Origin: a virus
Taxonomy: Duplodnaviria > Heunggongvirae > Uroviricota > Caudoviricetes
Strand: one strand, 5' to 3'
Virus record (IMG/VR): IMGVR_UViG_2740892274_000003
Length of the DNA: 9,880 nt
In this document: in pieces, positions 2,851-6,708 of the stretch
Layout of the letters: each line of letters starts with the position of its first letter
Numbering within the stretch: the stretch's first letter is position 1
Program-made: the position numbers and the translations under genes
The notes under the pieces: generated by a model
Seen by the model: the letters and a program-made list of their open reading frames with translations, nothing else
Told to the model about the DNA's origin: nothing
The model's database searches: none

Positions 2851-2885
2851 TCCCCGCGGTGCTCAAAACACCTCGAAAGCGGTAT

Positions 2886-2913
2886 CCACACCCGATAGCC
2901 ATGTGGTTTTTTT
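2886..2913 (+). terminator. weak terminator-like hairpin plus T7 tract
   Basis: CCACA (2886-2890) / TGTGG (2902-2906) with an 11-nt loop, followed by TTTTTTT at 2907-2913. Confidence 0.25.
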
Positions 2914-3056
2914 GTGTCCAGAATTCTTGGTTTATGACCGGGTGTGCGGCTAATACAATACCAGCAATGGAAATACGCCCGCCGACTTTCGACGGTTTTG
3001 AGCGCCCGGTCACCCTCTCAAAAGGGGTAAATCAAAATATTCGAAAGGACATGTCT

Positions 3057-3620
3057 ATGAATCGCACGTCTATTGAAAAACTCCCGTCACTTACGCATAA
3101 CCATCTTCCTGTCATGACAACAGAGCTGCTGGCTGATTTGTACGGAACAGAGCGCCAGCGTTTGACAAACAATTTCAATCGAAACAAAGAACGGTTTATA
3201 GAAGGTAAACATTTTTTCCTGATAGAAGGTGATGCGTTACGAGAGTTGAAGAACGAAAACTCTTTAAGAGTTTCTGTGAAAATTGCCCGTAACGTTCGCT
3301 CCCTCATCCTCTGGACAGAACGTGGCGCAGCCCGTCACGCCAAAATGCTCGAAACCGATCAGGCGTGGGAAGTGTTCGAAAAACTGGAAGACTGTTATTT
3401 CAACCAGAAACAGCCACCAGCGGCACAAAACACATCTATCGAAAATGATGGATGCGCATTACTGAGCCACTTCGATAAACACGGTCAGGTTGAGTTCACG
3501 GAAAAGGTACCCGCCGATGCGATGGTATGTACTCTGGAACGGTTTAAATTTTATCTGGAGCAACACGGGTGGATCGTTGCCCGTAAAGAGCAACTGGTGG
3601 AGCGGTTGATGCGGTTTTAA
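3057..3620 (+). CDS. ORF6N-domain (KilA-N-related, predicted DNA-binding) protein with an unassigned C-terminal domain; late-region cargo
   Basis: N-terminal region LPVMTTELLADLYGTERQRLTNNFNRNKERFIEGKHFFL ... ILWTERGAARHAKML fits the ORF6N pattern (LYG..RLN..RN.ERF...F.L...WTE.GA) as I recall it. ATG 3057 has AAGGA 8 nt upstream; ATG 3051 is an alternative. The longer GTG-2859 ORF has an implausible N-terminal extension. The C-terminal 70 aa are not recognisable. Confidence 0.7.
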   Translation: MNRTSIEKLPSLTHNHLPVMTTELLADLYGTERQRLTNNFNRNKERFIEGKHFFLIEGDALRELKNENSLRVSVKIARNVRSLILWTERGAARHAKMLETDQAWEVFEKLEDCYFNQKQPPAAQNTSIENDGCALLSHFDKHGQVEFTEKVPADAMVCTLERFKFYLEQHGWIVARKEQLVERLMRF

Positions 3621-3696
3621 AAATTTTTTCCGAAAACTTTACGATCGTAAAAAGTTGAATATCCTGTTAAGAGTGGTTACTACGCCACACAGCTTA

Positions 3697-3721
3697 AACC
3701 CGCCGATGAGCGGGTTTTTTT
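3697..3721 (+). terminator. rho-independent terminator after the ORF6N gene
   Basis: Stem AACCCGC (3697-3703) / GCGGGTT (3710-3716), loop CGATGA, then a T-run through 3721. Confidence 0.6.
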
Positions 3722-3771
3722 ATACCTGAAAAACGGCACAGGACGTTAAACGTGCTGGTGGTCAGATGAGT

Positions 3772-3800
3772 TTGCAGATGTGATGACATATGGTTATTAT
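3772..3800 (+). promoter_or_regulatory. candidate promoter for the tRNA cluster: TTGCAG-17-TATTAT
   Basis: -35 TTGCAG at 3772-3777 and -10 TATTAT at 3795-3800; predicted start about 3 nt before the first tRNA at 3810. Confidence 0.35.
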
Positions 3801-3809
3801 TCTGCCTCC

Positions 3810-3886
3810 GGCCCTTTAGCTCAGTTGGTCAGAGCGAGCGACTCATAATCGCCAGGTCGCTGGTTCAAGTCCAGCAAGGGCCACCA
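3810..3886 (+). tRNA. tRNA with anticodon CAT, most like tRNA-Ile2 (ileX/ileZ type); automated tools would likely label it Met
   Basis: Cloverleaf traced by hand: acceptor GGCCCTT/AAGGGCC, anticodon loop CTCATAA, T-loop TTCAAGT, discriminator A, encoded CCA. Anticodon stem-loop GCGACTCATAATCGC resembles E. coli ileX from memory. Confidence 0.85.
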
Positions 3887-3887
3887 A

Positions 3888-3964
3888 CCACCACTAGCTC
3901 ATCCGGATAGAGCATCAACCTTCTAAGTTGACGGTGCGAGGTTCGAGTCCTCGGTGGTGGGCCA
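3888..3964 (+). tRNA. tRNA-Arg (anticodon TCT, reads AGA)
   Basis: Acceptor CCACCAC/GTGGTGG (unusual C1-G72), anticodon arm TCAAC-CTTCTAA-GTTGA, T-arm CGAGG-TTCGAGT-CCTCG, discriminator G, encoded CCA. Confidence 0.8.
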
Positions 3965-3966
3965 GC

Positions 3967-4042
<76 letters not shown>

Positions 4043-4045
4043 TAT

Positions 4046-4120
<75 letters not shown>

Positions 4121-4733
4121 GCGAGATTTGAGACGAAGGTTGTTATTTGCACTGACACAATATTGTGTGGGAATGTCTGACTCCTTACCATCTCCTGTTC
4201 TGTGATGTTGTTTTGTTGCAGTTCCAGTGCTCTTTTTTCAGCACCAGAATGGTGCATTGTCGGTCAGGTTACGTAGTGAACCTCTGGCAGGGGACTGATG
4301 ATTCATCATTCTGGTGTTGTAAATATCTCTTCGGACAACTTACAAAATATTCTAAGCAAACCCCGGGAACACACTCTTAACTGCCTTGGCTGGCGGTTTT
4401 TTGTACAGTGCTCGGTATGTGTGAGCTGGAAATCAGATTTTGCATGGACTGGAATCATGCTGTTATTTAGGGGCGAAGAACTGGCTTTTTCTTCCGCCTT
4501 CTCACCAGTAACGATTAGAAAAATAATGAAATGCCCCCCTCCGGGGAGGAGGACCGTAGAAAAAAGGACCCGCCAGCAAAAACATTGGGGATGAACAGCT
4601 TTCGCTACTCAGATTGCTGGCGGGTAAAGTTCCTCATGAATTAAGAATGCTACGCGATCTTTTTTAATGGAAATGAAAATTATTGTCAATTAGTCGTGCG
4701 TGTTTTTTCATACAATATTGGTAAAGGTGATTC

Positions 4734-4768
4734 AGGCCATCAGAGTTTTGCTGATGGCCTTTTTTCTT
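4734..4768 (+). terminator. strong rho-independent terminator immediately upstream of the holin
   Basis: Perfect stem AGGCCATCAG (4734-4743) / CTGATGGCCT (4751-4760), 7-nt loop, then TTTTT(C)TTT. Confidence 0.65.
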
Positions 4769-4800
4769 TCCGATAGCACAGGTCTGTCGGGGGGCGGGAT

Positions 4801-5016
4801 ATGTATCAGATGGAAAAAATATCAACAGGCATTGCCTACGGCACCTCCGCCGGCAGTGCCGGCTACTGGTTTTTGCAGTGGTTGGATCAGGTCAGTCCAT
4901 CACAGTGGGCTGCGATTGGTGTGCTGGGAAGTCTGCTTCTGGGGCTTCTGACTTATCTGACAAATCTGTATTTCAAAATAAGAGAAGACAAGCGTAAGGC
5001 TGCGAGAGGTGAATAA
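4801..5016 (+). CDS. S: class II holin (phage 21 S21-type pinholin), dual-start motif
   Basis: 71 aa; [66 protein letters not shown] matches the S21 pinholin from memory. Two in-frame starts (M1, M4). Stop overlaps the endolysin ATG (TAATG). Confidence 0.9.
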
Positions 5017-5171
5017 TGTCGCCATCATTACGCAAGGCTGTTGCAGCTGCTATTGGTGGTGGGGCTGTTGCTATAGCATCTGTGTTAATCACTGGCCCAG
5101 GTGGTAACGATGGTCTGGAAGGTGTCAGCTACATACCATACAAAGATATCATTGGTGTATGGACTGTATGT
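5016..5171 (+). CDS. R: SAR endolysin (phage 21 R21-type lysozyme), 5' part only; remainder lost in the N run
   Basis: N-terminal 52 aa: Gly/Ala-rich SAR membrane segment ([18 protein letters not shown]) followed by [23 protein letters not shown], which carries the E-D-T catalytic triad spacing known for R21. The sequence runs into N at 5172. Confidence 0.8.
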
Positions 5172-5522
5172 NNNNNNNNNNNNNNNNNNNNNNNNNNNNN
5201 NNNNNNNNNNNNNNNNNNNNNNNNNNNNNNNNNNNNNNNNNNNNNNNNNNNNNNNNNNNNNNNNNNNNNNNNNNNNNNNNNNNNNNNNNNNNNNNNNNNN
5301 NNNNNNNNNNNNNNNNNNNNNNNNNNNNNNNNNNNNNNNNNNNNNNNNNNNNNNNNNNNNNNNNNNNNNNNNNNNNNNNNNNNNNNNNNNNNNNNNNNNN
5401 NNNNNNNNNNNNNNNNNNNNNNNNNNNNNNNNNNNNNNNNNNNNNNNNNNNNNNNNNNNNNNNNNNNNNNNNNNNNNNNNNNNNNNNNNNNNNNNNNNNN
5501 NNNNNNNNNNNNNNNNNNNNNN
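5172..5522. other. assembly gap / masked region (351 N)
   Basis: Continuous run of n. Removes the 3' two-thirds of the endolysin and the 5' parts of Rz and Rz1. Every six-frame ORF crossing it is an artefact. Confidence 0.99.
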
Positions 5523-5699
5523 GCAGTCTGTCAGTCAGTGCGTGAAGCCACCACCGCCTCCGGCGTGGATAATGCAACCAGCCCCCGACTGGCAGACACC
5601 GCTGAACGGGATTATTTCACCCTCAGAGAGCGGCTGATGACGATGCAGATGCAACTGGAAGGGGCACAGGAGTATATCCGCACTCAGTGCATTAAGTAG
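5523..5699 (+). CDS. Rz: Rz i-spanin, C-terminal 58 codons (start lies in the gap)
   Basis: AVCQSVREATTASGVDNATSPRLADTAERDYFTLRERLMTMQMQLEGAQEYIRTQCIK is near-identical to the lambda Rz C-terminus as I remember it. Confidence 0.8.
   Translation, partial: AVCQSVREATTASGVDNATSPRLADTAERDYFTLRERLMTMQMQLEGAQEYIRTQCIK
5524..5637 (+). CDS. Rz1: Rz1 o-spanin, C-terminal part, embedded in the +1 frame of Rz (start lies in the gap)
   Basis: QSVSQCVKPPPPPAWIMQPAPDWQTPLNGIISPSESG, proline-rich, matches the lambda Rz1 C-terminus from memory; nested inside Rz as expected. Confidence 0.75.
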   Translation, partial: QSVSQCVKPPPPPAWIMQPAPDWQTPLNGIISPSESG

Positions 5700-5741: not shown

Positions 5742-6092
5742 ATGCCATCACTAATCCCACGTGCCTGCCGTAAGCGTGGATGTGCAGGTACAACCACAGA
5801 CAGTTCGGGTTACTGCGATAAACATCGCGGTGAAGGCTGGGTGCAGCACCAGCGCGGACTGAGCCGCCACCAGCGTGGCTATGGCTCAAAATGGACGGTG
5901 ATTCGTGCCCGTATTCTGAAGCGCGATAAAGGTCTGTGTCAGTTGTGTCTGCGTGTCGGTGTGGTGAGCGAGGCGAAAACCGTCGACCACATCATCCCGA
6001 AAGCGCATGGCGGAACAGACGCAGACAGCAACCTGCAGAGTCTGTGCTGGCCCTGCCATAAAGCGAAAACAGCGCGCGAACGAATCCGGTGA
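5742..6092 (+). CDS. HNH endonuclease (terminase-associated type)
   Basis: 116 aa with Cys pairs CRKRGC...C and CQLC, then DHIIPKAHGG...N...CWPCHKAKT (HNH motif). GAGGT sits 6 nt before the ATG. Lies directly upstream of the terminase genes, as in HK97-like cos phages. Confidence 0.85.
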   Translation: MPSLIPRACRKRGCAGTTTDSSGYCDKHRGEGWVQHQRGLSRHQRGYGSKWTVIRARILKRDKGLCQLCLRVGVVSEAKTVDHIIPKAHGGTDADSNLQSLCWPCHKAKTARERIR

Positions 6093-6110
6093 TAATTATT
6101 CTCACTTGTA

Positions 6111-6174
6111 GGGAGGGGCGGGGCAAATCCCTGTGACCTGACGTCTTCCGGACTGCCCGCCCCATCGTTTTTTT
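6111..6174 (+). promoter_or_regulatory. GC-rich inverted repeat plus T-tract in the HNH-TerS intergenic region; candidate terminator and/or cos-site element
   Basis: GGGGCGGGGCA (6115-6125) pairs with TGCCCGCCCC (6154-6163) with one bulged G, about 28-nt loop, followed by TTTTTTT at 6168-6174. Confidence 0.3.
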
Positions 6175-6213
6175 ATACCCGCGAAAAATGAAATTTAACC
6201 AGGAGTGCCGCAT

Positions 6214-6708
6214 ATGGCTGGAACGGCGGGGCGTTCCGGGCGTCGCCCCAAGCCAACGGCGCGCAAGGCGCTGGCCGGAAACCCCGGCAAGCGAGCCCTG
6301 AACAAAGATGAACCTGTTTTTACGCCCATCAAAGGTGTTGAGCCACCAGAGTGGTTCGCTGAAGAAGATCTCCCTCTCGCCACGATCATGTGGCAACTGA
6401 CAACCAAAGAACTCTGCGGTCAGGGCCTGCTGTGCGTGACTGACCTGGCGGTACTTGAGCGGTGGTGCGTGGCCTATGAGTTCTGGCGACGTGCCGTGAA
6501 AAATATTGCCATACAGGGCAACACCATCACCGGTGCAATGGGCGGCAGGGTCAAAAATCCGGAGCTGACCGCCAAAAAAGAACAGGAGTCCGAGATGAGC
6601 AGCACGGGGGCAATGCTCGGACTCGACCCCAGCAGCCGCCAGCGTCTGATTGGCCTGGCGGGGCAGAAGAAAGCCACTAACCCGTTTCTGAAAATTATCG
6701 AATCATGA
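6214..6708 (+). CDS. terminase small subunit (P27 family)
   Basis: [34 protein letters not shown] is the characteristic N-terminus of P27-family small terminases. AGGAG lies 8 nt before ATG 6214. Stop overlaps the TerL start (ATGA). Confidence 0.85.

Follow-up and report, generated by a model that had tools for sequence, protein, structure and literature searches.

The ORF6N-domain gene behind Q in a phiP27-like prophage is probably the effector of an antisense-RNA-gated antirepressor switch

What does the gene placed between the Q antiterminator and the lysis genes do for a lambdoid prophage? We addressed this question in a segment of a lambdoid, phiP27-like prophage from the IMG/VR virus record IMGVR_UViG_2740892274_000003 (9,880 nucleotides (nt), here called the window). 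The original prediction, made from the sequence alone, had seen in this slot a cargo gene for a 187-residue protein with an ORF6N-type N-terminal half and a C-terminal domain that it could not assign. The slot is indeed bounded by Q and a P21-type holin gene. We found that the protein adds a member to a family of prophage regulators already known from enterobacteria and very common there, and that it is probably the effector of a switch similar to immI of phages P1 and P7, in which an antisense RNA gates an antirepressor. The switch would lie directly behind Q, where the late operon begins.

The gene had been placed at 2859-3620. A plus-strand open reading frame (ORF) of this extent exists, but 2859 is merely the first GTG past a stop codon (the maximal ORF), and the coding sequence itself is 3057-3620, beginning at ATG 3057. 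A Shine-Dalgarno sequence (AAGGA, 3045-3049) lies 7 nt upstream of this ATG, the E. coli relatives have one ATG only, which aligns with 3057 in the leader alignment, and RefSeq annotates the homologue in the relative EC12 as a coding sequence of 187 amino acids, the same length as in the window. According to an Rfam scan, the 198 nt from 2859 to 3056 consist of non-coding RNA elements and are not protein-coding. The gene is organized as follows:

3057-3620, + strand: coding sequence of the AnrP-like protein (Pfam, PHROG 2379, Gifsy-1 homology, AlphaFold models)
3093-3347, + strand: ORF6N domain, residues 13-97 (Pfam)
Residues ~115-133, + strand: disordered linker (AlphaFold model)
3447-3617, + strand: C-terminal module, residues ~131-187 (AlphaFold models)

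The N-terminal half is of the ORF6N type, as had been proposed: the PF10543 match at residues 13-97 is far above chance (E = 8.8e-21; 74.4 bits against a gathering cut-off of 27.8) and spans positions 5-86 of the 86 in the Pfam hidden Markov model. PHROG 2379 is matched over the full length of the protein, residues 2-187 aligning with positions 3-187 of a 187-position profile (E = 4.4e-85). The name of this family, 'anti-repressor', is an annotation with no tested function behind it; together with the homology to AnrP described below, the match favors the antirepressor among the several functions that had been thought conceivable. A homologue search with the 187-residue protein returned 4661 proteins at E <= 0.001. 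A Shigella sonnei protein is 99% identical, eleven IMG/VR contigs encode an identical protein, and the region of the gene is matched in 1349 of 5426 complete E. coli genomes (~25%).

In the AlphaFold model of the whole protein, residues 10-110 are confident, the linker (115-133) is disordered and the C-terminal domain is poor. A more diverse alignment gave a model of the last 57 residues as a β-hairpin followed by two helices, with a predicted local distance difference test score of 80.7. The original prediction had left this domain unassigned, and it stays so: its ~57 residues matched no family of Pfam or NCBIfam, nor any solved structure, searches of PDB sequences and NCBIfam with the protein gave no match, and a Foldseek comparison of the full model against the PDB gave nothing below E = 0.4. 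An exhaustive search for the domain matched only 19 clusters (50% identity), one of which, P0130, was discarded as a spurious repeat protein. The module is also found fused to Rha and to Ash+AntA N-terminal domains. In contig L098 (1-558; also in L099-L103), a Rha-type N-terminal domain is joined to the same module, 90% identical to that of the window, and therefore the N-terminal half has been swapped recently. The module may serve in partner binding or oligomerization.

ORF6N belongs to the KilA-N/Bro-N/Rha group, whose members are generally annotated as DNA-binding, and the weak best Foldseek matches of the full model (E > 0.4) are winged-helix or MerR-like DNA binders. Both points suit a protein that acts as a sequence-specific transcription factor on phage or host promoters without binding a repressor, under the same RNA gating. 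We consider this unlikely, since no fold match is significant and the RNA elements found upstream of the gene (C4-type RNAs and sRNA-Xcc1, see below) precede genes of the antirepressor class, including homologues of P22 Ant (P22_AR_N/C). The ORF6N domain further gave weak PADLOC matches to the candidate system PDC-S05 (E = 1.4e-7), and genes leading late operons are sometimes counter-defense genes, as would be expected of an anti-defense or defense factor that, for example, blocks host immunity early in late expression or excludes other phages. Such a role seems very improbable: the matches fall only in the shared ORF6N domain, PDC-S05 is itself uncharacterized, no defense partner genes lie nearby, and the AnrP data point to phage regulation.

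These data concern STM2616 of the Salmonella prophage Gifsy-1, which lies immediately after Q, as does the gene in the window, and is homologous to our protein over its full length, with 49.5% identity over residues 3-184 (48% in a second alignment) and only ~30% identity in the C-terminal domain. STM2616 is the anrP gene (SL2578) studied genetically by Hershko-Shalev et al. in 2016 (PMC4825925). In Gifsy-1, the isrK promoter drives isrK-orf45-anrP; without the activating small RNA (sRNA), the operon is transcribed (280 Miller units) and not translated (4 units), and the short IsrK RNA turns translation on in trans. Expression of AnrP raises the messenger RNA (mRNA) of the antQ operon (Q operon) and induces Gifsy-1 (PMC4825925), an outcome that fits an antirepressor and a transcription factor alike. 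An identification of AnrP with GfoA, the SOS antirepressor of Gifsy-1, was rejected, GfoA being LexA-controlled and adjacent to dinI (PMC3121763). The original prediction had named clear homology of the whole protein to a well-characterized phage protein as a point that would speak against it, and the homology to AnrP counts partly in this sense.

The window and Gifsy-1 share the order Q, isrK, C4, gene, terminator, tRNA. In the Gifsy-1 locus isrK-orf45-anrP-isrJ, Q and a promoter are likewise followed by a terminated IsrK (a1b1), a C4-like RNA (orf45/STnc1160) and the ORF6N protein, with a terminator and a tRNA downstream, and the covariance-model scores of IsrK and C4 are equally strong at both loci. 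The 480 nt between Q and the gene in the window are structured RNA containing four Rfam elements, all above their gathering scores. The Q-proximal part comprises:

2169-2576, + strand: Q antiterminator gene (PF06530, E = 2.7e-52)
2581-2610, + strand: promoter P1, TTGACC-18-TATATT, at the PR' position (promoter scan, 10/12)
2604-2656, + strand: c4-a1b1 element (RF03163; 50.1 bits, gathering score 46.7)
2617-2693, + strand: IsrK-type short RNA with a1/b1 hairpins (Rfam isrK; 77.5 bits, gathering score 50)
2642-2648, + strand: b1, TTGGAAC, in the IsrK-type RNA (complementary to C4 b')
2672-2688, + strand: intrinsic terminator and T-run of the IsrK-type RNA (terminator scan)
2719-2802, + strand: C4-type antisense RNA (RF01695; 71.0 bits, gathering score 45)
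2774-2780, + strand: C4 b', GTTCCAA (complementarity)
2806-2812, + strand: b2 remnant of the C4 module, TTGGAAC

The -35 hexamer of P1 and the block TCCGGGGCTATATTCC are invariant in the window, the relatives EC12 and O157, and Gifsy-1; in the alignment, the -35 and -10 regions are conserved and the spacer varies with the Q family. The IsrK promoter has been called antitermination-regulated, and IsrK is classed with the late-promoter RNAs, among short PR'-tR' transcripts that act as sRNAs (Sy et al. 2020, PMC7547250). Because of this classification and the conservation of its -35 and -10 regions, P1 would be the equivalent of PR', with transcription starting presumably at about 2617. The arrangement resembles that of lambda 6S RNA and StxS, in which a constitutive promoter right behind Q produces, in the lysogen, a short RNA that ends at a terminator. 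StxS, however, acts via Hfq on host mRNAs, whereas the IsrK/a1b1 RNA is paired with a linked C4-type RNA.

The C4-type RNA of the window is well folded (-44.9 kcal/mol, z = -5.0) and has b1 and b2 only, with no a2 site at the ribosome-binding site of the gene. Among the relatives of the gene, most follow a short leader (isrK-C4-gene), in which the C4 junction complements b2 just after C4 and the hairpin-2 loop complements a2 at the Shine-Dalgarno sequence, so that C4 has the site layout of immI. C4 loop and a2 covary among these relatives, with at least 8 specificities, e.g. CGGTGAT/ATCACCG (Gifsy-1), GTTTCGA/TCGAAAC, TCCGTAC/GTACGGA and TCCTTTTTC/GAAAAAGGA. An 8-nt complement of the C4 hairpin-2 loop (UCGGUUUC) is present inside the coding sequence of the window (GAAACCGA, 3351-3358, in the codons of the invariant LETD motif); as an a2 site it was rejected as probably due to chance, and the leader contains none. 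A C4-type element 96-98% identical to that of the window was also observed in contigs L047-L051 (about 605-688), where it comes 45 nt after an AnrP-like gene. It marks the end of the viral contig there, hydrolase genes follow, and no isrK was detected.

Between C4 and the gene, the window differs from Gifsy-1 by an extra module of ~200 nt, and the a2 site of C4 at the Shine-Dalgarno sequence is lost. In this module, we identified a second promoter, a putative decoy RNA and an RNA of the sRNA-Xcc1 family, followed by two target sites on the mRNA:

2822-2850, + strand: promoter P2, TTGACA-17-TACATT (promoter scan, 10/12)
2857-2913, + strand: putative short decoy RNA with the hairpin GGTG-CTCAAAA-CACC (complementarity, covariation)
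2861-2869, + strand: b1*, GCTCAAAAC, hairpin loop of the decoy (complements the Xcc1 3' junction)
2873-2879, + strand: a1*, TCGAAAG, in the decoy (complements the Xcc1 loop)
2886-2913, + strand: weak decoy terminator, CCACA (2886-2890) and TGTGG (2902-2906) followed by T7 (2907-2913) (stem covariation)
2936-3019, + strand: sRNA-Xcc1-family RNA with C4-like architecture (RF02221; 77.4 bits, gathering score 53)
2986-2992, + strand: Xcc1 recognition loop a', CTTTCGA, in hairpin 2 (complementarity)
2995-3003, + strand: Xcc1 3' junction b', GTTTTGAGC (complementarity)
3017-3023, + strand: b2*, CTCAAAA, on the mRNA (complements Xcc1 b')
3041-3047, + strand: a2*, TCGAAAG, on the mRNA, overlapping the Shine-Dalgarno sequence AAGGA (complements Xcc1 a')

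The Xcc1 element matches RF02221 from end to end (model positions 1-87 of 87) and forms a leader 38 nt upstream of the phage gene with linked cognate targets. Its loop and junction have exact complementarities of 7-9 nt, located by script, to a1*/b1* and a2*/b2*. The immI-type layout (a1*, b1*, b2*, and a2* on the Shine-Dalgarno sequence) is thus that of Xcc1 in the window and not that of C4. P2 coincides with the promoter that the original prediction had suggested, and a TTGACA/-10 pair is kept at this position in diverged relatives with different spacers. Since the unit that follows begins at P2 and ends in a hairpin and T7, the decoy would be the structural counterpart of IsrK/a1b1; its terminator stem covaries (CCACA/TGTGG versus CCGC/GCGG). 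The Xcc1 loop itself covaries three ways, with both a1* and a2*, among the window and four relatives:

Window: a1*/a2* UCGAAAG, Xcc1 loop CUUUCGA
EC12 and O157: a1*/a2* UCAGUAG, Xcc1 loop CUACUGA
L094: a1*/a2* CAGAAAG, Xcc1 loop CUUUCUG
L004: a1*/a2* UUAGC(A), Xcc1 loop UGCUAA

The joint between the C4 and Xcc1 modules lies just after b2, at about 2820-2824. We propose that the original C4 lock was replaced by the Xcc1 lock through recombination at this point, which would leave C4 without a target on the gene. With the Xcc1 lock beside the leftover C4, two heterologous RNA locks would therefore be stacked between Q and the antirepressor.

Three further observations were made in and around this module. 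A LexA-box-like sequence, CTGACGGTGTTGACAG (2813-2828, one mismatch), is the only such site near the gene; LexA control was rejected, since such sites are no more frequent than expected by chance (6 matches versus 3.4 expected) and this one is not kept in EC12. Within the Q coding sequence, the 11 nt of CCGTCGAAAGT (2298-2308) can pair without mismatch with Xcc1 hairpin 2 (2985-2995). If real, it would tie Xcc1 to the Q mRNA; because it is absent from L001 (same Q family, other loop) and from L068-L070 (same loop, other Q family), we treat it as probably a chance match. Lastly, contig L035 (1239-3006) carries ~1.35 kb inserted between Xcc1 and the ORF6N gene, is otherwise identical and retains residues 20-187; the insert is probably an insertion sequence element that uncouples the gene from its leader.

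The association of such elements with antirepressor-type genes extends well beyond the window. When IMG/VR was scanned with the Xcc1 core, about 107 unique elements were recovered, and 16 of 17 sampled loci passed RF02221, none of them with C4 or isrK nearby. An antirepressor-type gene follows Xcc1 at 70-95 nt in ~100 phage contigs, and cognate sites flank the RNA on both sides. Nearly all distinct downstream proteins (84 of 87) have an antirepressor-type N-terminal domain: KilA-N in 20, AntA in 17, Bro-N in 16, P22_AR_N in 13, ORF6N in 13 and Rha in 5. We then compared one representative of each distinct loop (59 loops) with its own leader, using 3422 non-cognate pairs as control and counting as a match any perfectly complementary run of 6 nt or more in the 25 nt that precede the start codon. 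A cognate match was present for 76% of the loops versus 5.3% of the non-cognate pairs (at least 7 nt: 58% versus 1.5%), and an upstream copy of the target for 78% versus 10%, both copies being found for 42 of the 59 loops. The median distance from the 3' end of a2 to the start codon is 9 nt (66 of 87 elements). A sigma-70-like site is located 80-140 nt upstream in 75% of 103 Xcc1 elements (10% of coding controls), and a terminator-like hairpin with a T-run just upstream in 43% (2% of controls). The 59 loop variants are consistent with an RNA that acts in trans with immunity specificity.

The conserved link to Q bears on whether the gene is free-standing cargo like the Stx toxin gene, as had first been suggested. 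The module starts 39-47 nt after the stop codon of Q genes from three Pfam families (PF06530, PF06323 and DUF1133). Among the relatives, 20 of 21 distinct upstream proteins are of Q size (117-225 amino acids) with the same spacing to the module, and a Pfam scan of 10 of them assigned 9 to a Q family, the one clear exception being an integrase. A lysogenic-conversion gene (moron), expressed for the benefit of the host and outside the phage decision circuit, would agree with the promoter-like site and terminator of its own, with the location between Q and the lysis genes and with the presence of the gene in no more than roughly one in four complete E. coli genomes. It is also missing from phiP27, the closest sequenced phage, which has other genes and stx2e there. 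Nevertheless, the gene comes first after Q, ahead of the stretch of the slot that really varies, in which the relatives carry tRNA, methylase and effector genes (GogA). It is wired to C4-type antisense RNAs, with a Shine-Dalgarno sequence that complements the adjacent antisense RNA, so that expression in the lysogen would be gated, and its homologue AnrP induces the prophage. We therefore hold the cargo role to be quite improbable, and the free-standing cargo of the original prediction is not supported.

Which known RNA systems does this arrangement resemble? In P1 and P7, a C4-type antisense RNA reportedly controls the antirepressor gene ant, according to work by Citron and Schuster from 1990. 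Two components of immI, C4 (RF01695) and the a1/b1 element (RF03163), are present in the window. In both systems, complements of the two recognition elements a' and b' of an RNA lie on either side of it, a1 and b1 upstream and a2 and b2 downstream, and one of the downstream complements covers a ribosome-binding site. Both gate a gene of the antirepressor type and exist in specificity variants, which give heteroimmunity in P1/P7. A CACCC at the 3' end suggests that the C4 and Xcc1 species are processed by RNase P, as P1 C4 is. In contrast to immI, the target in the window is the Shine-Dalgarno sequence of the effector gene itself rather than that of a leader ORF like icd (the start at 3057 is neither overlapped nor directly adjoined by any ORF), the effector is of the ORF6N type and not P1 Ant, and the module follows Q in a lambdoid late operon with two different C4-type RNAs stacked. 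In the P4 CI system (seqA - cI - seqC), with which the IsrK authors draw a parallel (PMC4825925), a processed small RNA also pairs with sites up- and downstream in its own transcript. The P4 RNA causes premature transcription termination of the replication genes, whereas the downstream site in the window lies on the Shine-Dalgarno sequence, which suggests translational control.

The sRNA-Xcc1 family has been read differently so far. It was described as a trans-acting integron sRNA of Xanthomonas under HrpG/HrpX control (Chen et al. 2011), a 2025 paper predicts plant and bacterial targets for the Xylella homologues, and recent papers treat sRNA-Xcc1 as a virulence or host-targeting sRNA. The RNA of the window covers the family model fully and well above threshold. 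Unlike the Xanthomonas RNA, it has no integron-cassette context (the window contains no integron features), and its targets are linked rather than unlinked. A paper on APSE phages recorded Xcc1 beside an ORF6N gene without proposing an antisense lock, and our searches of open-access papers turned up none that connects Xcc1 with C4 or with the control of antirepressors; Xcc1 as a C4-like lock on antirepressor genes thus seems unreported there.

The switch may be pictured as follows. P1 would give the short IsrK/a1b1 RNA that ends at its terminator, and read-through or Q-modified polymerase from P1 would continue across the C4-type RNA. From P2, a short decoy RNA ending at the weak terminator would be made, and read-through would yield the Xcc1 RNA and then the mRNA. 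The Xcc1 loop (CUUUCGA) would pair with a2* on the Shine-Dalgarno sequence and the junction (UUUUGAG) with b2* 20 nt upstream; the gene, we therefore propose, is transcribed and not translated in the lysogen. The original prediction had thought that the gene may be expressed there, and this probably holds for the RNA but not for the protein, given the Gifsy-1 values and the complementarity between Xcc1 and the Shine-Dalgarno sequence. The decoy, carrying both target sequences, would compete for Xcc1 in the way that IsrK competes for the C4-like RNA of Gifsy-1, and translation would be switched on once the decoy level rises or Q floods the region with transcript. The protein would then raise early/Q-operon expression and so reinforce lytic commitment. 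The simplest way would be for it to inactivate a repressor, either that of its own prophage or that of a co-resident one. The computation itself shows the domains, the homology, the gene order, the matches to RNA families, the complementarity and the covariation; in this picture, we infer the direction of regulation, the action of Xcc1 in trans rather than in cis, and the binding of a repressor by the protein.

Several points weigh against this reading. The repressor gene lies outside the window. The coupling to orf45 through AUGA, in which the stop codon overlaps the start codon, is essential in Gifsy-1 and absent here: the orf45-homologous ORF of 76 codons (2723-2953) has a conserved AUG at 2723 and ends 104 nt before ATG 3057. 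In Gifsy-1, the SOS antirepressor is GfoA, a protein other than AnrP (PMC3121763), and the original sRNA-Xcc1 was described as an integron sRNA acting in trans in Xanthomonas. The decoy terminator is weak (a 5-bp stem with an 11-nt loop) and was missed by the terminator scan, while the decoy folds no better than shuffled sequence (z = +1.1). Finally, the covariation would fit antisense action in trans and sequestration of the ribosome-binding site in cis, within one transcript, alike.

On a broader scale, we tentatively suggest that phage sRNA-Xcc1 is a second lineage of C4-type immunity RNAs, a cis-linked lock with a decoy and dozens of interchangeable specificities. In the window it would have replaced the C4 lock by recombination, and the orphan C4 could act in trans on co-resident prophages. 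This larger proposal is possible, and we hold it with less than even confidence.

Downstream of the gene, a scan recovered the terminator that had been noted before, and five relatives keep it, among them Gifsy-1 with its IsrJ terminator:

3621-3724, + strand: conserved 3' untranslated region with an intrinsic terminator, stem 3696-3717 and T-run (scan; z = -2.2)

This region and its terminator are kept in EC12 and L037, at the position of the IsrJ sRNA of Gifsy-1, and may give an IsrJ-like 3'-end sRNA. An isrJ homologue proper was rejected: the window, unlike Gifsy-1, has no Rfam isrJ match, and just the terminator and the position are common to both. Around the switch, the window contains:

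43-1575: DnaB-type helicase gene
1829-2200: RusA gene
3810-4120: four tRNA genes
4801-5016: P21-type holin gene
5016-5699: endolysin gene, mostly masked by an N run at ~5170-5530
Further genes: HNH endonuclease, small and large terminase subunits, portal

The tRNA genes, with a promoter-like site in front of them at 3771-3800, are Met-CAT (possibly an ileZ-like lysidine tRNA), Arg-TCT, Thr-TGT and Gly-TCC; the cluster is located where Stx phages carry ileZ-argN-argO. The 680 nt between the tRNAs and the holin gene (4121-4800) have no annotated feature in 99.9%-identical E. coli copies. They contain terminator-like hairpins at 4379-4398 and 4734-4760 and have partial matches in 1428 genomes, 639 of the places being on plasmids. 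Within 5742-6708, the HNH endonuclease gene lies directly upstream of the P27-family small terminase gene, a known association in cos phages of such type.

For the gene itself, these results change little; the context of its leader matters more. Gating by RNA offers a mechanism, testable by mutation, for the silence of ORF6N-protein genes in lysogens, and an antirepressor under a Q-dependent late promoter would constitute a positive feedback from late transcription to derepression. If the proposed role is true, sRNA-Xcc1 moves to a phage immunity function with linked targets, which redirects the target searches in Xanthomonas and Xylella. The covarying specificities and the swap from C4 to Xcc1 suggest widespread RNA heteroimmunity and cross-talk among prophages in polylysogens, including E. 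coli and Shigella that carry Stx phages.

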